Made by a program: the position numbers and the translations under genes. From Candidatus Omnitrophota bacterium (GTDB taxonomy: Bacteria; Omnitrophota; Gorgyraeia; Gygaellales; Profunditerraquicolaceae), in NCBI GenBank assembly GCA_029571225.1, contig JAKPTF010000009.1:26925-90924 (forward strand): a DNA stretch of 64,000 nt. The letters run 5' to 3'. The notes under the pieces were generated by a model. That model saw nothing but the letters and a program-made list of their open reading frames with translations. It was not told where the DNA came from and searched no databases. Below, one piece after another: positions 50,623-62,636 of this stretch. Every line of letters begins with the position of its first letter. Positions within the stretch are counted from its first letter, which is position 1.

Positions 50623-52245
50623 TCAGGATTCGTACCGGATCGCGGCGGTGAACGTCACGCTTGTCTGCTTCAGTTCTGCGGGGAACGGGGGCAGCGGGGA
50701 AAGATCTTCGATGGACCTGACGGCATTCTCGTCAAGGAATGAGTTTCCGGAACCGGCGACGACCGTCACGCCGGATATCATGCCGTCGGAGAAAACCGTG
50801 AACTCGACGACAACCTCCTTGGATTCTCCCCTGCGCGTTCCCGTTATGAACTCCGGGAATTTTTTATGCGACTCGATCAGCCTGCCGATATCGTAATAAT
50901 ATTTCTGCACAGGGTCCTGCGGCGGCAGGGCATCCGTTTTTTTCGGGTCACGGTCGAGGCTCACCGCCATCTTCTGCAAACGGTCAAACGCGGAATCCTG
51001 CAGGATGCGCGGAGTGATAAGGATAATGACTTCCTTATTTTGGACGCTGGTTACCTTGTGTTGGAACAGTGCCGGGCCGATCAAGGGGATATGGCCGAGA
51101 ATGGGCCACTTGTTCGTCGATTCGCTTTTCTGCTCCTGAATGAGGCCGCCGATCGCGATCGTCTGGCCGTCGTCAACCCGCAGCGTGGTCAATGCGGTGC
51201 GCTTGGTAATGACGGGTAATCCTTCGGCGCTTTGAGCCGTCACTTCGCTGACTTCCGGAGCGATCTTGACCGTGATCTGTTTTTTATCGTCAAGGTACGG
51301 CGTAATCCGCAATATAACTCCGGACGAAATGGACTGCAGCGTGCTGTATCTGTTGCCCTGGGAGCCGACTTCGATGGTCGCGTATTCTTCTGTGCCTACG
51401 CTCAACTCCGCCTGTTTGCCCTCCAGCGTAGCCACACGGGGATTGGCCTTGACCTTGGCCTTGCCTCTGGCGACCATGGTATTGATACGCGCGATCACAT
51501 CATTGCTCAAGGTGCCTGATATGGTCGTCGTTTTAGCCGCCGACGTGCCGGAAACTTTCGAATATGTGGCTTCGTTCGCCGGCATATTAATATTAAAACC
51601 TGTCGAATACATGGGCCCCCACGCGATGCCCAGGGCGGTAGAGTCGATTTCGGAAATCTCAATAACAAGGGCCTCGATCATGACCTGCCGCGGCGGCCGA
51701 TCCAGCGTCGCCAGATCTTTTTTCAAGCGGGCGACTACTTCAGGCGCGGCAGTTATGGTAATGGTATTAATGTCCTCGTTGACATGGATGTAGGGCGAGT
51801 AAAATTCCGAGATAAGGCTTTGAAGCTCTTTTGCCTTTAAATAGCTGGGCTGAAAAAAGTCCGTGACCGAGAGCTTATTGAACGACGGGCTGTTGGGCGT
51901 GCACAGGCCAACCAGGTAATACCCTTCTGGCATCTCCCTGAAGGAATAGTTGCCCGACGAAAGCACCAGCCGCAGCGCATCTTCCAGCGGGACCCCCCAC
52001 AGTTCGATGGAAATGGAGCCCTGCACGGTTTCATCAGGGACTATCTTGACGCCGGTCTGAGCCGAGATATCCCTTAGCACTTCGCGGATATCGGTCTCAA
52101 AAAATGAGTTGTTGACCGTTGGCACCGGGCGCTTGAACTCATCCTCTTCCATGAGAAATGCGTCAAGCTCGCCGGCAAAAACAGGCGCGCGAAGGATCAG
52201 CAAAACACCGCATAAAGCAATAAGGTTAAGTTTTAGGGATTTCAA
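50623..52245 (-). CDS. secretin (GspD/PilQ superfamily) with C-terminal TonB_C domain
   Basis: 540 aa. Signal peptide, N0-like and N1-like domains, and a secretin core (ANPRVATLEGKQAELSVG...PILGHIPLIGPALF...VIILITPRIL). The C-terminus KEVVVEFTVFSDGMISGVTVVAGSGNSFLDENAVRSIEDLSPLPPFP fits the TonB_C pattern. Confidence 0.8.
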   Translation of the reverse strand: MKSLKLNLIALCGVLLILRAPVFAGELDAFLMEEDEFKRPVPTVNNSFFETDIREVLRDISAQTGVKIVPDETVQGSISIELWGVPLEDALRLVLSSGNYSFREMPEGYYLVGLCTPNSPSFNKLSVTDFFQPSYLKAKELQSLISEFYSPYIHVNEDINTITITAAPEVVARLKKDLATLDRPPRQVMIEALVIEISEIDSTALGIAWGPMYSTGFNINMPANEATYSKVSGTSAAKTTTISGTLSNDVIARINTMVARGKAKVKANPRVATLEGKQAELSVGTEEYATIEVGSQGNRYSTLQSISSGVILRITPYLDDKKQITVKIAPEVSEVTAQSAEGLPVITKRTALTTLRVDDGQTIAIGGLIQEQKSESTNKWPILGHIPLIGPALFQHKVTSVQNKEVIILITPRILQDSAFDRLQKMAVSLDRDPKKTDALPPQDPVQKYYYDIGRLIESHKKFPEFITGTRRGESKEVVVEFTVFSDGMISGVTVVAGSGNSFLDENAVRSIEDLSPLPPFPAELKQTSVTFTAAIRYES

Positions 52246-53461
52246 TGTTTATTCCTACCTGAACGGGGTCCAGGGACTCGACAGCTCCGTCCCCGGACAC
52301 GCATGTCGGCACCATGATTATCGAGATCTGCAACGTCTCTTCCGGGGCATCCGACGGAACTGTCGCGGTCAGCACTATCTTGGATTCTGCGCCGCTGGGG
52401 ATTTGTATCTGCTCCGGCGCAAGAGAAAACCATTCTTTAATCGGATTCCCCCGGTCGAATGCCGCGGTTATTCTAACCTCCGCAGCGCTCTGGTTCCGCA
52501 CGGCAAAGGCCGCAGTGCGAAAACCTCCGCGCGGAATCTTAAGATTCAACGATGCGGGCACCGCCTCTATCGCCGCAACGCTGACAGCCGGCTTTTCGGG
52601 CAACGCAGACTGCGATTTCGAGCTAGTCACTATGAAGGGCATTTCGGTTTCAAGCGTTGCCATGCCTCCGTACCGGAACGTTGCGCGGGCGATATACTCG
52701 CCTGCGGGAAGGGCACGGTCATATAAGGCGATGAATTCGCGAGTGTGGCCGGGCAAGACCGTACCGGTACCGACGTTGAAATCGACCTCTCCTTTTCTCC
52801 TGCGGTCCGGTGTAAGAATGACCAGTTTTCCGGTCGCGGCGATATGGATATTGCCGAGATTATGGATCGAAGCCAGGAAGGTCAGGCCTCTGGGCACGGA
52901 TTCCATGTCCTCAAAGAGCGTTTGCAAAAAAAAATCGTCTATGCGGGCAGTTCTCTCGATTCTGCCGCCGGTCACCGTGGCCTTGACGAGGGATGCGATG
53001 CGCCACCGGATATTCCCGCCCGGCTGATGCGGCGCATCCTCAGCGCTCAATTCGCAGGCGACCGCGCTGTAGTATCCACCGGCAGTTGCCTGCGCCGGTA
53101 TTGTGATCTTGCCGATGATTTTTTTCGTCTGCCCCGGTTCGACGACGACGGTCTTCGGCTCGACAGAGATCCATTTACTGCAGGAATAAGGGGTCGTTGC
53201 AGGATCGCGGAACTCGGTCGTGCCGTCCCTGGTCATATCCACATCAACGGGACTGATCGTGAAGCTCAGCGAACGCTCACGATTCTCGTTGATCAGTTCG
53301 AACCAAAACAACTTGGTCCCGCCGCGGCTGAGGCTTATCTCAGACACCGGCGGGCTGATCTTGAAATTCACCTGGGCATAACACGGCAAATCACAGAACG
53401 GGAAAAGAAAGATGCCTGCGGCTGCAAGAATCTTCAGCCTGATAATGATCTTAACTCGCAT
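52226..53461 (-). CDS. secreted multi-beta-sandwich protein (PapD/DUF916-like pattern), candidate assembly factor
   Basis: 411 aa. Signal peptide ending CYAQ. Repeated Ig-like segments (FKISPPVSEISLSRGGTKLFWFELINEN, SVEPKTVVVEPGQTKKIIGKITIP, LNLKIPRGGFRTAAFAVRNQS, IQIPSGAESKIVLTATVP). 20-nt overlap with the secretin gene. Confidence 0.5.
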   Translation of the reverse strand: MRVKIIIRLKILAAAGIFLFPFCDLPCYAQVNFKISPPVSEISLSRGGTKLFWFELINENRERSLSFTISPVDVDMTRDGTTEFRDPATTPYSCSKWISVEPKTVVVEPGQTKKIIGKITIPAQATAGGYYSAVACELSAEDAPHQPGGNIRWRIASLVKATVTGGRIERTARIDDFFLQTLFEDMESVPRGLTFLASIHNLGNIHIAATGKLVILTPDRRRKGEVDFNVGTGTVLPGHTREFIALYDRALPAGEYIARATFRYGGMATLETEMPFIVTSSKSQSALPEKPAVSVAAIEAVPASLNLKIPRGGFRTAAFAVRNQSAAEVRITAAFDRGNPIKEWFSLAPEQIQIPSGAESKIVLTATVPSDAPEETLQISIIMVPTCVSGDGAVESLDPVQVGINIEIPKT

Positions 53462-54807: not shown

Positions 54808-57639
54808 TTAAAACGCCTGGTTGATGCCGAGCCAGTAATGGGCCTTTTGCTTCGGGTCATTGAGCGGGTGTGCCGCGTCAATCCTGACCACGACACGTTC
54901 AAGGATGCCGCAGATGTTGAAATGGAACCGCAATCCGACGCCGGCGTTTTTCCTGAAATCCGCGTCATTATAAGACGAAAACCACGCTCTGCCCGCATCA
55001 AAAAACCCGACGCCCTGGATCGCGTTCAGACAAAGGATATTGTCGATCAGATACAACCGCATGTCCCTGATCAGTGGAAGGCGGTATTCGACGCCGGCAA
55101 GAACACAGCGGCTGCCCCGCACGTCAGTGCGGCCGTAACCTCGCAGGCTGTCGGCTCCGCCGAGCTCAAAAAGCCCCTTGTCAGAATGTTCTCCCCATCC
55201 GGCCTTTAGCCGCGCTGCGATCTTATGCTGGTGGCGCTCTGACACAGAGAAATATCTCTGCAATTCCATGCTCGTGCGCCAGAACGCCTGGTCCCCGCCA
55301 AGAATATGCCCGGCAAGCTCCTGGGTGGGTATCAAGCGCCAGCCAAAACCTGGGTCCCCGTAGGGACCGTACCTGCCCAGGGATCCGGTTATGCCGAAAA
55401 CAGCTTCGTTCTTTCTGCGATAGCACAAATTGCGCATATCTTCGCGGCCGTTCAAACCATCAACGGAATCGAGGCGCCTGTCCCTCAGGAAATACAGGGT
55501 CGCATGGTCATTGACGTCGAACATGCCGTAATTTGCCGGCCACAATTCGCGCCGCCAATATACCCTGCCCCCTGCCACGTCGTTTTTCTCCCTGCTGGAA
55601 TCATAGTTGAAGACTTCGAATCCCAGCGCGTTCTGCCTGCCCGCAACGCCGTTTACCTGGTACCCCAGGCGAGAATCAAAGGCCTTGCCGTTGAAATCAT
55701 ACATGGAACTCGCCCGCACGATACTGTCGTACGGCTTCTGGACTGAGGATGATATACCGAGCGAAGAGCCGCCGGCAGAAGGGCCTGCAGCGGCATTGTA
55801 CGAATCACGGCCGTAAAAAAACGGCATTTCATACGCAAAGAAGTAAAGCGGCGCAAGCCGCAGCGAAGTGCGGCGCGGCCAGTGGTTATTGGTCCGGTCC
55901 CGGTCGAGCGGAATGGCTTCATCGGGATCTATATCAACGCGGCAGGCGTCCCTGTTCGGATCCGTGGCAATCACGTGGCAGTCTCCTTGCCCGTCCCATG
56001 TGTCGCGTTGCCGCGTGCCGTCCCGGTACGACACGACGGTTTCGACCGGCATGCGCAACGCCCCCCTGTTCTCGATCGTGACAGATCCCGCGGATACGGA
56101 TCTTACCGCGAAATCGCACTGTTTGCCTGTCAAAAGCCACTGATCGAAGAATGCGTTCAGGTCAGAGCCCGATTCTTCGCCGAAGACCCGGCGCAGATCC
56201 CGCACGCTGAAATTCCTGAAGGCAAATTCTCTCGTATACCGGGCAACGGCATGGTCGAACACGTCCCTGCCGACCTGCGCCTCAAGCATGATCAGAACCG
56301 CAGCGCCCTTGCCGTAAGCCAGGGAAAAGATCGATGAAGGTTCGCGGAAACTCGACAGTTCGCCCAGGACCGGCCTGTCATATCCCGCTTTGGCCAGATA
56401 CGAATACCGGGACAGGGTAACGTTACGGAAAGAAAAGTTCGGGACAAGCCAGGCAAGCCACGGCGGAAGGTCCATGACATATGCGTTATACCCGTAACGG
56501 TCCTCGAGGTACCGGAGGATCCAGTAGGAATTCATCGCCTCGTCCAGGAACATCTCCTTGTATTCATCCGATCCGACGATGTTGTAGAACCATTGATGTC
56601 CGGTCTCATGCGACACCAGAAAATCGAAATACCTCGACAGGAACCCCGGCAGCCGGTAGAGCCTCGTATCTATAAACACGAGGCCCGACGACTGGTCTCC
56701 GCCGAAACCTAGATACGCCGGAACGATCGAGAATTCCTTATACGGATACGGCCCGAATCTCGCGGAGTAGAAACGCATCAACGCGGCTGCGTTTTCTGCG
56801 GCTTCCCGCGCAGCGGCACGGTTGCCGTGAATATAATAGGATCTGATGGTGTATCCGTCTTGCTCGAGAGAAACGGACGCGAAATCAGGAGAAATCCCCA
56901 CTCCCAGGTCACGCAAGGGGATCTCGCAACGGAAGGCCACGGTCCTGGTGCCGTCGGCATTTAGCGAGGACTCCCCCGCTACGCCGCCGCTGACGACCTG
57001 ATGGTTTTGCGGCACTGTCATGGCCAGGGAGTAATACGCGGCATCGCTGAAAAACGGCTGATGGTAAACGTAGAACGGGTATTTATGCCAGCCGGCATCG
57101 TCAAGGACGCACAGGATCGGATACCAGCGTGTCAGGGTGATGACGTTCCGGTGCCAGCCGAACCTGCCGTACGAATGAGGTATGACGACCGAATATGACA
57201 TTTCGATCGTGACGGATCCGCCGGGTTCGAGCGATGAGGGAAGGGTGACGTTAAGGATCGTTTCGTCCGCGCCCTCTATAATATAGGAAAGCCGCGCGCC
57301 ACCGCAACGGATATCCCTGATGCTCAGGTCCCCTGATTGAAAGCCCGCGGGAAACGGATCGACCTTGAAATACCCAGCATACCTGCTCATCATGCGAGCC
57401 TCGGCTCTGGTATAACGCCGGTGCGGATAGATATGAAAATACAGGTTCTCGACGGGTTTTGAAGAATTATTTGTGAACGTAACCGATTGTGTTGCCTCAA
57501 GCGAACGCCGGGCCGGGTCAAGCGCGGCTTTGATGTCGTAGCGCGGCGGCTGGGCAAAAGCGCCGCATGAGTAGCACAAAATTACGCCAACAGAACACAC
57601 CCAGATTGACAGGATTTCAGGGACGCGGCTATTTTTCAT
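54808..57639 (-). CDS. M1-family zinc metallopeptidase fused to Omp85/surface-antigen-type beta-barrel
   Basis: 943 aa. Signal peptide. HETGHQWFYNIVGSDEYKEMFLDEAMNSYW (HExxH-x18-E). The C-terminal ~330 aa has alternating beta-strand sequence (GGADSLRGYG, GVGFFDAGRAW, AGVGLRFHF) ending in ...WLGINQAF. Confidence 0.8.
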   Translation of the reverse strand: MKNSRVPEILSIWVCSVGVILCYSCGAFAQPPRYDIKAALDPARRSLEATQSVTFTNNSSKPVENLYFHIYPHRRYTRAEARMMSRYAGYFKVDPFPAGFQSGDLSIRDIRCGGARLSYIIEGADETILNVTLPSSLEPGGSVTIEMSYSVVIPHSYGRFGWHRNVITLTRWYPILCVLDDAGWHKYPFYVYHQPFFSDAAYYSLAMTVPQNHQVVSGGVAGESSLNADGTRTVAFRCEIPLRDLGVGISPDFASVSLEQDGYTIRSYYIHGNRAAAREAAENAAALMRFYSARFGPYPYKEFSIVPAYLGFGGDQSSGLVFIDTRLYRLPGFLSRYFDFLVSHETGHQWFYNIVGSDEYKEMFLDEAMNSYWILRYLEDRYGYNAYVMDLPPWLAWLVPNFSFRNVTLSRYSYLAKAGYDRPVLGELSSFREPSSIFSLAYGKGAAVLIMLEAQVGRDVFDHAVARYTREFAFRNFSVRDLRRVFGEESGSDLNAFFDQWLLTGKQCDFAVRSVSAGSVTIENRGALRMPVETVVSYRDGTRQRDTWDGQGDCHVIATDPNRDACRVDIDPDEAIPLDRDRTNNHWPRRTSLRLAPLYFFAYEMPFFYGRDSYNAAAGPSAGGSSLGISSSVQKPYDSIVRASSMYDFNGKAFDSRLGYQVNGVAGRQNALGFEVFNYDSSREKNDVAGGRVYWRRELWPANYGMFDVNDHATLYFLRDRRLDSVDGLNGREDMRNLCYRRKNEAVFGITGSLGRYGPYGDPGFGWRLIPTQELAGHILGGDQAFWRTSMELQRYFSVSERHQHKIAARLKAGWGEHSDKGLFELGGADSLRGYGRTDVRGSRCVLAGVEYRLPLIRDMRLYLIDNILCLNAIQGVGFFDAGRAWFSSYNDADFRKNAGVGLRFHFNICGILERVVVRIDAAHPLNDPKQKAHYWLGINQAF

Positions 57640-58273
57640 ATTTAAGAGGGCACGATCCGCATCGCGGCTTTGTCTTCAGGCAGTATTCCTTGCCCAGGCG
57701 GACGATGAGCGCATGGAACTCGTTGAACACGCCGGAGCCACCGGCGAGATTGCGCATGCAATACGCCTGTATGTCGCCGTAGGACGCGTCTGCCGGAACC
57801 AGACCATGGCGCGAAAAAATGCGCCTTGTGTACGCGTCAACCACAAAAACAGGCTTATTGAACGCGTATAATAGGATAGAATCTGCGGTTTCCGGGCCGA
57901 TGCCGTTCACGGACAAAAGCTGCTGCCGGAGCGCCGCAAGCGGAGCCCTGCGCATCCGCGCAAGGCTGCCCCCGTATGAGCTGTGCAGGACATCAAGAAA
58001 ATTCTTAAGCCGTTTTGTCTTTAATCGGTAATACCCCGACGGTCTGATCAAACGGGCCACCGCGCTGTTATTCATGCGGCGCAGCTTCCCGGCTGACAGG
58101 GCGCTTGCCCGCTTCAGGTTCTCGACCGCCCTGGCGACGTTTTGCCAGTTCGTATTCTGCGTCAGGATGGCACCGACGATGATCTCGAAAGCCGAATCGC
58201 CCGGCCACCAGTGCTGCGGGCCGAAATGTTCCAAGAGGATCCCATATACTCTCTGCAACCTATGCCGTTTCAC
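57629..58273 (-). CDS. endonuclease III-related HhH-GPD family protein
   Basis: 214 aa. ILTQNTNW, HhH VNGIGPETADSILLYAF (Glu where Nth has the catalytic Lys), VVDAYTRRI. C-terminus CLKTKPRCGSCPL has only three Cys before the stop. Confidence 0.8.
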   Translation of the reverse strand: MKRHRLQRVYGILLEHFGPQHWWPGDSAFEIIVGAILTQNTNWQNVARAVENLKRASALSAGKLRRMNNSAVARLIRPSGYYRLKTKRLKNFLDVLHSSYGGSLARMRRAPLAALRQQLLSVNGIGPETADSILLYAFNKPVFVVDAYTRRIFSRHGLVPADASYGDIQAYCMRNLAGGSGVFNEFHALIVRLGKEYCLKTKPRCGSCPLKYEK

Positions 58274-60273
58274 CGGCCGTCCCCCGGATCGAGAGGATTA
58301 TAATTATAGTAGGCGAATATCGTGTACGCGGTGCCTGCGACGGAACCAGTGGTCATACCGTTGGGCGTCACCCATCCGTGGCCTGTGTCGACCGATTCGG
58401 CACTGGCATACGGCAGGCACCCTTCCCCCTGCCCCGTCGGCGACGGGCTTGATATAATCATGGTGCATAACGATGCAAGATACTCGTCAGCGGTCCTCTC
58501 GTATGCAAGAGCCTTTGTCTCGACGTTTTGGCTGCGGTAATAATCGGCCATGATGCGGTATGAGATGATCATCTGTGCGGTCCATTCCGTGGATATGACT
58601 CCGCCCCGCGCCATGTGCCGGGCTGGCGCGAAATCAAATCCCCTGACGAGCGACTTCTTTCCGTCCGCGGCCGTGTATTCGACCTCAACGGCGCAATTCT
58701 CCTGGGCGAATTCCAGGATCTTGTCCGGGTTCATGCCCAGCTCAATCAGTTTTTTCGGGCCGAGCGCGGCAATGGACCATGCGTAGGTATCGGTCGCGAT
58801 CGTTGAATCACCCTTGCCGCGTTTGATGGGAATCTCCGGCCTGTCGTAACTGTGTGCCGAGAGCCACCGGAGCACTTTATCGCGGCTTGCGAGGTAGGAT
58901 TCGTTATTAGTTGCGGCATAAAGCATGTTGAAGAACGCGTAGGCGTCTAGGTTATGCTCGGTGGAATACCATGAGACCGACGGGCCGCCGACGATCCCGC
59001 CCTCCCCGTCCTGGGCCTGAAGCCTCATGATGTTCCGCGCTATATCCTCTGCAAGCGGCATGAAACGCTTATCCTGGGTTTTCTGCGAATACCGCACTGC
59101 CGCAATCCCGAGCCAGATATTCGGTCCGCTGTGGACGATATATTCGACCGGAGAACCGTCATTGACGTAGTATGCGTTGACAAACAGGCCGCTGGTGCGT
59201 TTGGCGCGCCGGCTGAAGAAATCGAGAACCTTCGCAGCCCGTTCAAAATCAGAGAAGTTTACGTATGTCTGCACCACGAGCGCCTGGTCGTACATGAACG
59301 CCATGTCCTTCAGGGCGCGGTCGCCCTCATACGACATAACAAGGCCGGTGCGCGGATTTTGATGCACAACGAGCCACCGGTACATTTTGTCAAAATTGGC
59401 CTTCTCGAGGTAGGCCTTCTTCCGGTCAAGCCGCAGCAATTCCTGCGTAACCGTATTCTCCTTCTCCTGCAGGACAATCAGCCTGTCCTGGAAACCAGTC
59501 TTGTCTTTTGTAAGCCGGGCTATCATGTCGTTAAGTTTCCGGATCCTTTCCTCCGCCTTTGCAAGCTCGCCCTGCGCCTGCTCTTCCATGGTCGCCTTTT
59601 CCTTCTCTGCCGCCTCAGCTGCCAGCTCCTGGGTCCTGCGCTCTTCTTCAAGAGCCTGAATCCTGACCTGAAGCGTCTGCAATGAACGCTGCGCGTCTTC
59701 CTTATCCCTGCTGATTTCCTTGATCTTTTGTTTTGCGCTCGTAGATTCGCGCAGGATCTCCACTAGCTGCGAGACGAGGGCCTTATTCCCCTGTATCAGC
59801 CTGTAATTAAGATACGTATCGAAGCCGAGTGCCACGGCGAACACGCAAGCCAGGGCCAGGGCCGATGGCAGGGCGATTTTTTTGATAAACGCATATTTGA
59901 CGAGCCTTGACCGATGCGTGCTATCGATCTGCACATATGACAGGCCTATTCCGAATTTGCCCGACTCCCCTGTTTTCTCCTGCATCCATGCGACGGTTGC
60001 ATGGGCAGCAACGGCAGGCCGGTTGAGCGGCATTTCGATCTTAAGCTCGATCCTGGCCTGCTGCGTCCTGACCAGCAGCAGCAGATCGGAGCTCAACTCG
60101 TGCACATGCAGCAGTATGCCGCCTTTGCCGATATTGGAGGTATATCCCTGGAGCCATTCGGAAAGAGGGGCGGATCCGTCAAAAGAATAAAGCCTGAACT
60201 GCACGGGGAATACCGAGTCCAGTCTGATATAGCGCCTGCGTTCTTCACGGAAATCAGGCTGGTGTGACATCAT
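58270..60273 (-). CDS. PilZ - TM - coiled coil - alpha-helical toroid-like domain protein
   Basis: 667 aa. N-terminal PilZ (ERRRYIRLD, SNIGKGGILL), TM LPSALALACVFAVALGF, ~130 aa coiled coil, and a ~370-aa helix-repeat C-terminus with Trp/Tyr-rich loops resembling six-hairpin glycosidase folds. Confidence 0.6.
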   Translation of the reverse strand: MMSHQPDFREERRRYIRLDSVFPVQFRLYSFDGSAPLSEWLQGYTSNIGKGGILLHVHELSSDLLLLVRTQQARIELKIEMPLNRPAVAAHATVAWMQEKTGESGKFGIGLSYVQIDSTHRSRLVKYAFIKKIALPSALALACVFAVALGFDTYLNYRLIQGNKALVSQLVEILRESTSAKQKIKEISRDKEDAQRSLQTLQVRIQALEEERRTQELAAEAAEKEKATMEEQAQGELAKAEERIRKLNDMIARLTKDKTGFQDRLIVLQEKENTVTQELLRLDRKKAYLEKANFDKMYRWLVVHQNPRTGLVMSYEGDRALKDMAFMYDQALVVQTYVNFSDFERAAKVLDFFSRRAKRTSGLFVNAYYVNDGSPVEYIVHSGPNIWLGIAAVRYSQKTQDKRFMPLAEDIARNIMRLQAQDGEGGIVGGPSVSWYSTEHNLDAYAFFNMLYAATNNESYLASRDKVLRWLSAHSYDRPEIPIKRGKGDSTIATDTYAWSIAALGPKKLIELGMNPDKILEFAQENCAVEVEYTAADGKKSLVRGFDFAPARHMARGGVISTEWTAQMIISYRIMADYYRSQNVETKALAYERTADEYLASLCTMIISSPSPTGQGEGCLPYASAESVDTGHGWVTPNGMTTGSVAGTAYTIFAYYNYNPLDPGDGR

Positions 60274-62636
60274 TTTTTCCTTTCAAGCACTACCCGCTGT
60301 TTAAGTCGCAGGCCCAGCTGTTCCATAAACGCCTTGTAAGCGGGATATTCTTCCTGGGTGACACTGCGGGCGCGCAATTCGATCGACTGGCGGAACAAAA
60401 GCGTCCGTGCCTCCAGGTCATATCGAGCGCTGAATTTCATCCATTGATTTTCTTCCTCAATCGGCCCCGGGACGTACCTGGCGTCATATCCCGGCGGCAG
60501 GTATATCGCGGTCTCGATATTCCTGGAGTCAAGCACGGGGTAGAGGATCGGATAAACCCGCGCCTTTTTTGACACCGATGACATATCGATGCTGGCCAGT
60601 GAGGGCAATATCCGTAGCCTGCCTGCGGGAATCATAAACTCTGGCCCGGCGAACGAATAACGCAGCATAAGGGGCTTGTTCAAGTCGTTCAGATTGTCAA
60701 CGGAATATCCTTCAAGGCGCGCGCCGATGGAAATCTCCTGGATCTTAGACGTAATCGTATCTTTGACGGTATCCGGAAGGGTGTACAGGAGCCAGTACCG
60801 CTGCGTCTGGTCATAGATCCCTTTGCTCGATACTGCCCGTTCGCCTGTAACGCCCTCATCGGGGCCGATCGACAGGGACAGCCGCTGGCTGACCGTATTA
60901 TGGCCGGCCGGATACAGCGGCGTGCGCGCAATCTCAAACCCGTTTTCCTTGATGACCAGAACCGTCCGATCCTGGTCGCCTGCGGGCAGGTCCCCGAACG
61001 AACAGGTCTCTGCGGTCGGGTCCATAAACGCAAGTTTCCCGTTCAGGGAGACCGCGGCGATGCAATGGTTGAACAGCATCGCGGGAAACTCCCCGTCCAT
61101 CGCGAATGAATCGCTCGTAGGGATCAGCACCGGCCAGGCTTCAAACCCCGCCTCCCTGAGCATGGCCACCAGCAAAATCGCCTGGTCCTTGCAGTCGCCG
61201 TATTTATTCTGGAATATATCGCCGGCTTGATGGGGCTCATAGCCGGCCTGCCCGTACTCAACAGCGACATACCTGATCTTCTGTGCGCAGAAATTATGGA
61301 TGGAGGCGATGCGCGCCTCGTCGGAAGATATCCCCGCAGTCAATTCTCCCACCTTCTGGCTGATTGCCGCAGTCGTTTTGATTTTATCCTTTGCAAGGGA
61401 CCACCACCAATCATAGATCTCCTGCCAGCTGTCGAACGAGGATATAAGGACTGCCGGGTTGATCTCCTCAAAAGGAGGCATCTGAGGCTCTGGTATGATC
61501 TGAGGGATATTCCCGCATTGCCAGCGGTATGTAATGCGGCCATTGTCACGCATGACAGCCGGTGAGAGACCGGCGCCGAACGAATTATACCGCTCGTTGA
61601 CGGTCCTGATGTTGACTTTCCGGGATGAAGGGATCGTGAGCTCAAACCTGCTGTCGATGACCGGTTCGGGCGCCTGCAGACTCAAAGGGATCACAAAGTC
61701 CTTCTTGTTTATGAGCTGCGACCGGTGAACGGCAACCTTATATTCTATCACCGCTCCCTCGGTTATCTCCGGGAACGAGATGATGAAAACGCGCGCGTTG
61801 CTGTAAAGCGGGAAATTCAGATACTTCGATACGTCGCGTATGTGGCGGCTGCCGACGTCGACCACCGTGCCGTCCGGACGGATCGTCCGCGCATACTCAA
61901 GTATCACTTTCTCGTCGGTCGAATCGTATTCGATCGGCGCCTCCGCGAACCGCTCTTTGCCTCGTTCGTTGACGATGCGCACGATATAATGCAGCAGATA
62001 CACCATAGTGTTGCCGGCCGTTATCTGAACCTTCTCGTCGCTTAAAAGTATGAGCGCCCCTGCCTGCGGATACTGTGCGGGTTCCGGGCTGCCTGCCAGG
62101 ATCGCCGCGACGCCGGGATCGATATCCCCTATCCTGCGGGTATTGACGGCCTTTTCAATTGCCGCGATGCGTTCGGCCGCTTTTCCGGCGAAAGCCTTAC
62201 CGCCTATGCCCCGGTAGGCAGCCAGCGCACGGTCAAACAGGTTCAGTTTTTCGCAGATCAGGCCGTGATAATACTGAAATTCGTCGTCCTTGCGCTCCTG
62301 GCGGCTGCATATCTCCAGGGCTGAGGTATAATCGCCTGACCGATACAGCGCTATGGCCTGATACTTGGCTGCATCGGGCTCTTTAGACCTGCGCAGATGG
62401 CCGATCGCGCGGTCAAGGTCGCCGTGGCTGAAGTACAGCATGCCTGCCGCTAACCGAATCCGGGACGAATCGGGCGCGGCCGCAAGTATTCGTTCATAGA
62501 GGCGTGCTGCCGCTTCGTAACGCTCCTGCGCCTCCCGGGCGTAATGCCGTGCGCGCGCGGCAGGGTCTTGAGCAAAACACCCGCATAGCGACAGAAACAA
62601 ACACCCTATCAGGAAGACGCCTCGTATCTTTTTCAA
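60270..62636 (-). CDS. TPR plus DUF3857 / transglutaminase-like / DUF3858 protein
   Basis: 788 aa. Lipobox/signal LSLCGC, N-terminal TPRs, transglutaminase core FQNKYGDCKDQAILLVAMLREAGFEAWPVLI. Confidence 0.75.
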   Translation of the reverse strand: MKKIRGVFLIGCLFLSLCGCFAQDPAARARHYAREAQERYEAAARLYERILAAAPDSSRIRLAAGMLYFSHGDLDRAIGHLRRSKEPDAAKYQAIALYRSGDYTSALEICSRQERKDDEFQYYHGLICEKLNLFDRALAAYRGIGGKAFAGKAAERIAAIEKAVNTRRIGDIDPGVAAILAGSPEPAQYPQAGALILLSDEKVQITAGNTMVYLLHYIVRIVNERGKERFAEAPIEYDSTDEKVILEYARTIRPDGTVVDVGSRHIRDVSKYLNFPLYSNARVFIISFPEITEGAVIEYKVAVHRSQLINKKDFVIPLSLQAPEPVIDSRFELTIPSSRKVNIRTVNERYNSFGAGLSPAVMRDNGRITYRWQCGNIPQIIPEPQMPPFEEINPAVLISSFDSWQEIYDWWWSLAKDKIKTTAAISQKVGELTAGISSDEARIASIHNFCAQKIRYVAVEYGQAGYEPHQAGDIFQNKYGDCKDQAILLVAMLREAGFEAWPVLIPTSDSFAMDGEFPAMLFNHCIAAVSLNGKLAFMDPTAETCSFGDLPAGDQDRTVLVIKENGFEIARTPLYPAGHNTVSQRLSLSIGPDEGVTGERAVSSKGIYDQTQRYWLLYTLPDTVKDTITSKIQEISIGARLEGYSVDNLNDLNKPLMLRYSFAGPEFMIPAGRLRILPSLASIDMSSVSKKARVYPILYPVLDSRNIETAIYLPPGYDARYVPGPIEEENQWMKFSARYDLEARTLLFRQSIELRARSVTQEEYPAYKAFMEQLGLRLKQRVVLERKK

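Follow-up and report, generated by a model that had tools for sequence, protein, structure and literature searches.

An M1 zinc peptidase joined to an Omp85 barrel in Omnitrophota, a probable tethered enzyme of the periplasm

Introduction

A gene that joins a zinc peptidase to an outer-membrane barrel raises a simple question: is the enzyme sent out through its own barrel, or is it held by the barrel at the inner face of the outer membrane? Such a gene lies at positions 54808 to 57639, on the minus strand, of a 64,000-nucleotide stretch from a Candidatus Omnitrophota bacterium (assembly GCA_029571225.1, contig JAKPTF010000009.1, positions 26,925 to 90,924), and this whole stretch is called the window here. 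An earlier note, made from the letters alone, had read the product as a protease of the M1 family fused to an Omp85-type barrel, and had proposed that the protease is anchored in the barrel or exported through it, like an autotransporter built from different parts. We found that the fusion is a real and conserved gene in Omnitrophota bacteria. Its product is probably, with moderate confidence, an outer-membrane-tethered periplasmic zinc metallopeptidase, the side of the membrane being deduced from topology rules.

A single gene for two domains

54808..57639, minus strand: whole gene, M1 peptidase-Omp85 barrel fusion of 943 amino acids (open reading frame list, Pfam PF01433 and PF01103, full-length homologues)
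54808-54810, minus strand: stop codon of this gene, counted in the gene coordinates
57553..57639, minus strand: predicted Sec signal peptide, residues 1-29, MKNSRVPEILSIWVCSVGVILCYSCGAFA then QP (judged by eye)

The reading frame was unbroken from ATG to stop over 943 codons. Both domain assignments of the earlier note were confirmed by Pfam above its cut-offs, with Peptidase_M1 at residues 281-501 (E 4.8e-22, 79.1 bits, cut-off 27.7) and Omp85 at residues 762-906 (E 1e-12, 48.6 bits, cut-off 24). The motifs that it had listed were all located in the single frame: GFGGDQ at residues 311-316, HETGH at 344-348 with E367, SLRGYG at 831-836, GVGFFDAGRAW at 876-886, AGVGLRFHF at 899-907 and GINQAF at the end. 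The N-terminus also looks Sec-like, as had been claimed, and the homologues have comparable hydrophobic N-termini directly before a conserved PRYEI, the start of the mature protein.

A homologue search in 5.8 billion proteins gave 335 matches, and sizes and domains were described for the best 120. These best 120 showed 92% to 45% identity, were all about 900-1000 residues long and all carried both Pfam domains. Those with names belonged to Candidatus Omnitrophota and were automatically annotated as 'M1 family aminopeptidase' or 'BamA/TamA family outer membrane protein'. The fusion also turned up at 77 distinct loci when species-representative genomes were scanned, the majority of these loci being labelled Omnitrophota; the other labels, e.g. 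'uncultured Planctomycetales', are possibly generic labels of metagenome-assembled genomes. A frameshift or assembly artefact is excluded because the best 120 homologues and the 77 loci encode the same two-domain protein. The idea that neighbouring genes for an M1 peptidase and a POTRA-less Omp85 protein were merged by a sequencing or assembly error, or that a hidden stop separates two genes, is thus practically dismissed by the continuous frame, by more than 120 independent full-length homologues of equal length with both domains from many assemblies and sources, by the 77 loci, and by the high conservation of the very linker that joins the two halves.

The M1 peptidase module

A full-length AlphaFold2 model was built on a 42-sequence alignment, with a mean predicted local distance difference test score (pLDDT) of 87.4 and a predicted template modelling score (pTM) of 0.87. 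Residue conservation was counted over 42 aligned homologues.

56830..57543, minus strand: M1 N-terminal beta domain (domain I), residues 33-270 (all-beta in the AlphaFold2 model, pLDDT mostly above 90; Foldseek)
56125..56820, minus strand: thermolysin-like catalytic domain (domain II), helical, residues 274-505 (Pfam residues 281-501; sequence and profile matches in PDB to M1 aminopeptidases)
55930..56112, minus strand: small all-beta sandwich like M1 domain III, residues 510-570 (six strands and no helices in the AlphaFold2 model; within the Foldseek alignment)
56539..56610, minus strand: zinc site HETGH-x18-E, residues 344-367 (H344, E345, H348 and E367 invariant, 42/42)
56314..56316, minus strand: catalytic Tyr442, opposite the Tyr of Y-x-K-G in M1 structures (invariant, 42/42)
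56689..56703, minus strand: GGDQS, residues 313-317, at the position equivalent to GxMEN (opposite GAMEN in HMMER alignments)

Foldseek with the full-length model aligned about 585 columns with IRAP, ERAP1 and ERAP2 (E about 1e-28), and the PDB sequence matches of the protein were exclusively M1 aminopeptidases, over residues of about 100-530. We read the model as an M1 enzyme with domains I-III present and the helical domain IV absent, the barrel taking the place of domain IV. Residues 510-570 are not a POTRA domain: the model has six strands in an all-beta fold, against the beta-alpha-alpha-beta-beta order of POTRA. No POTRA family of Pfam matched the protein at E up to 1, and no beta-alpha-alpha-beta-beta unit was present at residues 505-613 of the model.

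The gluzincin core HExxH-x18-E, as described before, is intact. Because H344, E345, H348, E367 and Y442 are invariant in all 42 homologues, the enzyme should be active, as far as sequence can tell. The Glu of the GxMEN motif binds the alpha-amino group of the substrate in M1 enzymes. The window protein does not have this Glu, its place being taken by Q316 (Gln in 37 of the 42 sequences, Glu in four and Asn in one), which agrees with the altered position reported by the earlier note and holds for this subclade; distant fusion clades retain the Glu as G-N-E. Strict aminopeptidase specificity may be relaxed by this Gln. In M1 enzymes an acidic residue of domain I also helps to hold the N-terminus of the substrate. 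This substrate-anchor segment was not aligned by phmmer with residues 90-300. A conserved GWH[NK]YPFYxYHQP at residues 183-195 contains no acidic residue by eye, and its equivalence to the domain I anchor is ambiguous.

The linker and the Omp85 barrel

55801..55929, minus strand: conserved linker, residues 571-613, consensus DRTNNxWPR...VPLYFFAYEIPVF (alignment and AlphaFold2 model)
54811..55800, minus strand: 16-stranded Omp85 barrel, residues 614-943 (16 long strands by DSSP on the AlphaFold2 model)
55135..55146, minus strand: LRGY signature at the tip of loop 6 (L6), residues 832-835, between strands 11 and 12 as in BamA
54991..55005, minus strand: FFDAG motif on the inner wall of strand 13, residues 879-883, lid-lock partner of L6
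54811..54834, minus strand: C-terminal beta-signal-like end WLGINQAF, residues 936-943

The C-terminal part of about 330 residues, suspected earlier to be an Omp85 barrel, was modelled as one at residues 614-943, and the structure prediction that had been proposed as a check gave 16 strands. With a barrel-only model of residues 575-943 (pLDDT 80.8), the top 50 Foldseek matches in PDB were all BamA or TamA (probability 1.00, E 1e-12 to 1e-9), at a query-normalised TM-score of 0.48-0.59.

Functional motifs of Omp85 are kept on the barrel. At the tip of L6, L832, R833 and G834 never vary, and Y or F stands at position 835. The L6 motif of Omp85 is defined as (V/I)RG(Y/F) (PMC4490367), and the window protein has Leu where the definition has Val or Ile. 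The strand-13 motif has an invariant F879 and an invariant D881, with G883 in at least 90% of sequences. FxDxG is the form of BamA and TamA with a narrow, kidney-shaped barrel, whereas GxDxG is the form of the FhaC translocases, whose pore is wider and has room for a plug helix (PMC4490367). At the C-terminus W936 is invariant and G938 occurs in 38/42; the aromatic last residue that had been noticed is the invariant F943.

The linker is conserved as well, with N584, N585 and Y599 invariant and W587, P588 and P597 in at least 90% of sequences. In the AlphaFold2 model it has one strand of five residues, two helices of four residues and no long helix. Its pLDDT was 84-95 in the full-length model and 38-75 in the barrel-only model, and this drop in confidence without the M1 module suggests that the linker packs against that module rather than within the barrel. 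The M1 half and the barrel half show a similar degree of conservation.

Probable location and action of the enzyme

In the tethered periplasmic peptidase that we favour, the precursor would be exported by Sec and its signal peptide cleaved after AFA29. The M1 module (580 residues, domains I-III) and the linker would then stay on the periplasmic side, against the barrel rim, in the place that POTRA takes in BamA. The chain of an Omp85 barrel enters strand 1 from the periplasmic face, and its loop L6 joins strands 11 and 12. Because the start of strand 1 is periplasmic and the canonical L6 position is kept, the M1 module should be periplasmic unless the chain threads the lumen. The confident full-length model also suggests a defined arrangement of the M1 module and the barrel.

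Threading of the lumen seems unlikely because the linker has no long helix and appears to pack on the M1 module, because the barrel is of the narrow kind, and because the enzyme of PlpD is periplasmic. PlpD is the one enzyme-Omp85 fusion that has been characterised; the location of its enzyme domain was shown in 2024, and FplA could not be detected at the cell surface (PMC11116518). The authors of the PlpD work argue that, where there is no ATP, a closed Omp85 barrel leaves no passage for a folded domain (PMC11116518).

Catalysis would follow standard M1 chemistry: H344, H348 and E367 would hold the zinc, E345 would act as the general base, and Y442 would stabilise the transition state. The barrel would be an anchor, and possibly a docking platform for substrates, rather than an export pore; we read it as an anchor because the closed lid-lock of the BamA/TamA type is kept. 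The peptidase would thus act on polypeptides beside the inner face of the outer membrane.

Some points weigh against this tethered periplasmic enzyme. The face on which the M1 module lies is deduced from the topology rules rather than observed. An N-terminal segment of FhaC runs through the Omp85 pore (PMC4490367), and residues 596-613 could in principle thread the pore as in FhaC. Globular aminopeptidase passengers exist on classical autotransporters, e.g. AaaA (PMC3426542). The gene neighbourhood of the fusion is conserved but functionally mixed, with unrelated housekeeping genes interspersed and no clear pathway.

Alternative explanations

The most interesting rival, which we place ahead of self-export and yet regard as unlikely, is a specialised Omp85 insertase or translocase. 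Here the barrel would work on a client, the M1 module would substitute for POTRA by binding unfolded clients, and proteolysis would be a secondary quality control, like BamA and BepA in one chain. The retention of all Omp85 functional signatures on the barrel speaks for it, and so does the M1 fold that part of the wider family keeps without catalytic residues. The barrel with its linker (residues 575-943) was searched against 1.84 billion cluster representatives, which gave 538 matches at E<=1e-3 and 20 at E<=1e-30; 47 of the best 150 of these 538 also match the M1 part. Down to 25% barrel identity, the M1 module is present in every full-length protein that matches the whole barrel, and three fusion clades were seen. 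The Omnitrophota type of about 910-985 residues has an intact active site. A clade of about 980-1058 residues, with some clusters labelled Planctomycetota or Gemmataceae, has G-N-E at the GxMEN-equivalent position and an intact active site in all representatives but P0188, where HExxH is lost. In the third clade, of about 841-896 residues and with two clusters labelled Nitrospirota, HExxH is replaced, e.g. by KGLYY, and HExxH was found nowhere in the 12 representatives (P0152, P0164, P0172, P0173, P0184, P0186, P0190, P0197, P0202, P0214, P0229 and P0231). This clade keeps the context of the x18-Glu, the M1 fold and the linker region, together with the L6 RG[YF] in 11 of the 12 representatives and the terminal Phe in all 12.

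An M1 fold that is kept on the barrel without its catalytic residues, as in this clade and P0188, implies a role of the module besides catalysis. Such a role is easier to reconcile with a POTRA-like binding position than with secretion of the enzyme, and it also counts in favour of the tethered periplasmic enzyme described above. There is also the precedent of BepA, a zinc peptidase with chaperone-like and degradative roles at the beta-barrel assembly machinery (PMC8423444), and another family with a peptidase-like domain, PD40 and Omp85 exists. On the other hand, no client gene is conserved next to the fusion: the commonest neighbours, a PilZ/GH76-like gene (36/77 loci) and an M48 peptidase gene (27/77), are not universal. 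The POTRA domains of known insertases and translocases are absent, and a lateral-gate function has no direct evidence.

A one-chain 'dock and cut' mechanism may be put forward just as tentatively. The M1 module would sit in the POTRA position, and unfolded envelope polypeptides would be caught by the barrel, or by its rim and the linker, and processed in the M1 cleft. Such a protein would be a covalent counterpart of BamA plus BepA. If this is true, the Nitrospirota-labelled dead clade kept the binding or chaperone half only, and the mechanism would be a mode of Omp85 use so far undescribed.

Self-export of type V kind is more doubtful still. In this explanation the barrel moves the M1 module to the surface, where the module is displayed or released and digests external peptides, e.g. 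for nutrient scavenging by host-dependent Omnitrophota. The order of enzyme and then barrel is that of PlpD and FplA, which were first classed as type Vd secretion; AaaA carries an aminopeptidase passenger on an autotransporter (PMC3426542); and both topologies were considered for enzyme-Omp85 fusions by Heinz and Lithgow. However, the periplasmic enzyme of PlpD and the failure to detect FplA at the surface (PMC11116518) argue against it. The passenger here is a 580-residue, three-domain, zinc-dependent alpha/beta enzyme and not a vectorially folding beta-helix, the lid-lock is invariant and of the narrow FxDxG form, and there is neither a POTRA nor a long helix to span the pore. The catalytically dead clades are also hard to square with a secreted enzyme. 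The proposal that the protease leaves through its own barrel in an autotransporter-like way is, as it was put, unsupported in view of the PlpD precedent, the FxDxG lid-lock and the missing pore-spanning helix. Enzyme-Omp85 fusions already form a named class, type Vd or PL-Omp85, with PlpD and FplA.

Comparison with related proteins

PlpD and FplA share with the window protein a single chain that begins with a Sec signal and a hydrolytic enzyme and ends in a 16-stranded Omp85 barrel, which in all of them is of the BamA/TamA kind and not of the TpsB kind. They differ in the enzyme, which is a patatin phospholipase in PlpD and FplA and an M1 zinc peptidase in the window protein (Pfam found only Peptidase_M1 and Omp85). 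The window protein also has no POTRA between enzyme and barrel, and its enzyme module is about twice as large. By analogy it would work most like PlpD, but it lies outside the PlpD family because patatin and POTRA are both absent.

With BamA and TamA, its best structural matches, the protein has in common the 16-stranded barrel, the RG[YF] of L6, the FxDxG of strand 13 and the C-terminal aromatic residue. It has no POTRA, of which BamA and TamA have three to five, and carries an enzyme instead. The PepN, Omp85_fam and BamA models of NCBIfam were all below threshold, with 25.5 bits for TIGR03303 (BamA; cut-off 297) and 41.5 for NF047779 (Omp85_fam; cut-off 200). By these models and its domain content, the window protein is not a BamA or TamA orthologue.

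The M1 aminopeptidases (PepN, ERAP1/2, IRAP, tricorn factor F3 and the two-domain M1dr) have the same HExxH-x18-E, catalytic Tyr and domain I-II-III fold. In contrast to them, the window protein has no helical domain IV and continues into a barrel, has Gln for the GxMEN Glu, and would be exported and anchored in the membrane. We regard AaaA, a type Va protein of Pseudomonas aeruginosa, as a classical autotransporter whose barrel has 12 strands and whose peptidase belongs to an unrelated family. It has an aminopeptidase and an outer-membrane barrel in one chain (PMC3426542). Classical type Va autotransporters have 12 strands and a helical linker through the pore, whereas the window barrel has 16 strands and its linker no such helix. 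BepA, a periplasmic M48 peptidase, is a functional analogy only: it is a zinc metallopeptidase at an Omp85 barrel with proteolytic and non-proteolytic roles (PMC8423444), but it belongs to a different peptidase family and is a separate, unfused soluble protein with TPR repeats.

Other Omp85 groups without POTRA are known, namely noNterm, Metallo and WD40-like. The 'WD40-like' group (Heinz and Lithgow 2014) is similar to the window protein in having an M1-like N-terminal peptidase of the MA clan, a POTRA-less barrel and a length of about 900-1000 residues; the M1 aminopeptidase structures 1z5h, 4kxd and 3qnf are its Phyre2 matches in Table S3 of that paper. The peptidase part of the group appears only in the supplementary table there. 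The window protein differs by its full M1 domains I-III, where the WD40-like group has a short MA_2 domain, and, in Pfam, by the lack of the PD40 propeller, which in the WD40-like group is TolB-like and lies between peptidase and barrel.

Among the nearest barrels outside the M1-Omp85 family is a PD40-type family (P0159, P0167, P0169, P0183, P0205 and P0224) of about 930-1010 residues, with Peptidase_MA_2 (HExxH near residue 135), PD40 and Omp85, and with one member labelled Elusimicrobiota. It matches the WD40-like group in domain content. Its alignment with the M1-Omp85 family by hhalign covered the C-terminal half of the barrel only, and a common origin of the two families was for this reason not adopted.

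Genomic context

60270-62636, minus strand: upstream protein of 788 residues with a lipobox-like N-terminus, TPR, DUF3857 and a transglutaminase-like core (a DUF3858 match is weak and sub-threshold)
58270-60273, minus strand: upstream protein of 667 residues with N-terminal PilZ, a predicted transmembrane helix, a long coiled coil and a conserved C-terminal domain
50623-52245, minus strand: secretin of 540 residues with Secretin, Secretin_N, N0 and a C-terminal TonB_C
52226-53461, minus strand: Fn3-like protein of 411 residues
53789-54160, minus strand: protein of 123 residues with a hydrophobic N-terminus

In the window the fusion is the last of four co-directional genes (62636 down to 54808) that overlap by 4, 4 and 11 nucleotides, the 11 being the overlap of its ATG with the end of the gene upstream. 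An EndoIII-like DNA glycosylase gene stands inside this string, between the gene of the PilZ protein and the fusion. The C-terminal domain of the PilZ protein matched GH76 only weakly, in 18 of 28 members (best E 7.7e-4), and had no counterpart among PDB sequences.

Among the 77 loci the PilZ protein is the commonest upstream neighbour (36/77). The transglutaminase-like protein is upstream in 28/77 and an M20 peptidase downstream in 21/77, and a homologue of the HhH-GPD glycosylase lies within about 6 kb in 44/77, upstream in 26 and, as a distant relative (23-27% identity), downstream in 18. Two types of synteny were seen. Type A has the order TPR/DUF3857/transglutaminase protein, PilZ protein, EndoIII-like glycosylase, M1-Omp85 and M20. 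Type B has AsnC, an aminotransferase, a small TPR protein, an M48 peptidase, sometimes the PilZ protein, then M1-Omp85, YjbQ and PfkB. The M48 peptidase of type B has about 370 residues and lies about 150 nucleotides upstream of the fusion in 27/77 loci; examples are L003 6869-7990 (Peptidase_M48_N and M48) and L005 7233-8027 (M48 only).

No universal neighbour or conserved client gene was found beside the fusion among the 77 loci. A mechanism drawn from an operon partner was therefore dropped, given also that a DNA glycosylase is within the operon. As evidence the gene context is weak, and it is suggestive at most of envelope proteolysis.

Between the fusion and the M20 peptidase of the window there is a three-gene block of the secretin, the Fn3-like protein and the 123-residue protein. 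Syntenic loci, L001 and L007 among them, lack the block, and the secretin is present in L006. To our knowledge, a secretin and TonB_C in one protein are uncommon.

Neither the window nor the flanks of 82 loci showed a second Omp85 or a canonical BamA, though this sample is too small to speak for whole genomes, and the taxon labels of the BamA-like matches contained no Omnitrophota entry. A canonical BamA of 915 residues, with several POTRA and Omp85, was seen at locus L083 (3001-5748) of a metagenome contig. Four consecutive OmpH/Skp-like genes come after it, and an M20 peptidase gene and pilN/pilO-like genes come before it.

Implications

Searches of the literature on Omp85 or BamA together with M1 peptidases, aminopeptidases or the Omnitrophota brought up no account of this fusion. 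PF00149 is presumably, by its Pfam naming, a metallophosphoesterase family. This family, and not a peptidase, defines the 'Metallo' Omp85 group of Heinz and Lithgow. Their ten-subfamily classification of 2014 has no M1-Omp85 group, and PF01433 is absent from the supplementary files consulted. It is already known that public databases hold proteins with both domains, the idea of an enzyme-carrying Omp85 scaffold is established, and peptidase-propeller-Omp85 proteins were catalogued in 2014. The gain is thus moderate, as the architecture was already visible in databases and a related family had been listed.

Omp85 proteins are familiar as insertases and translocases. PlpD recently showed that the scaffold can also keep an enzyme beneath the outer membrane. 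The M1-Omp85 family brings a second enzyme class to it, unrelated to the first: an M1 zinc peptidase, here on a barrel that has no POTRA. It is a natural test of whether Omp85 barrels generally anchor or dock periplasmic enzymes, and of what the M1 fold does once domain IV gives way to a membrane barrel. For the Omnitrophota, a phylum with almost no experimental biology, it offers a testable protein of the cell envelope.

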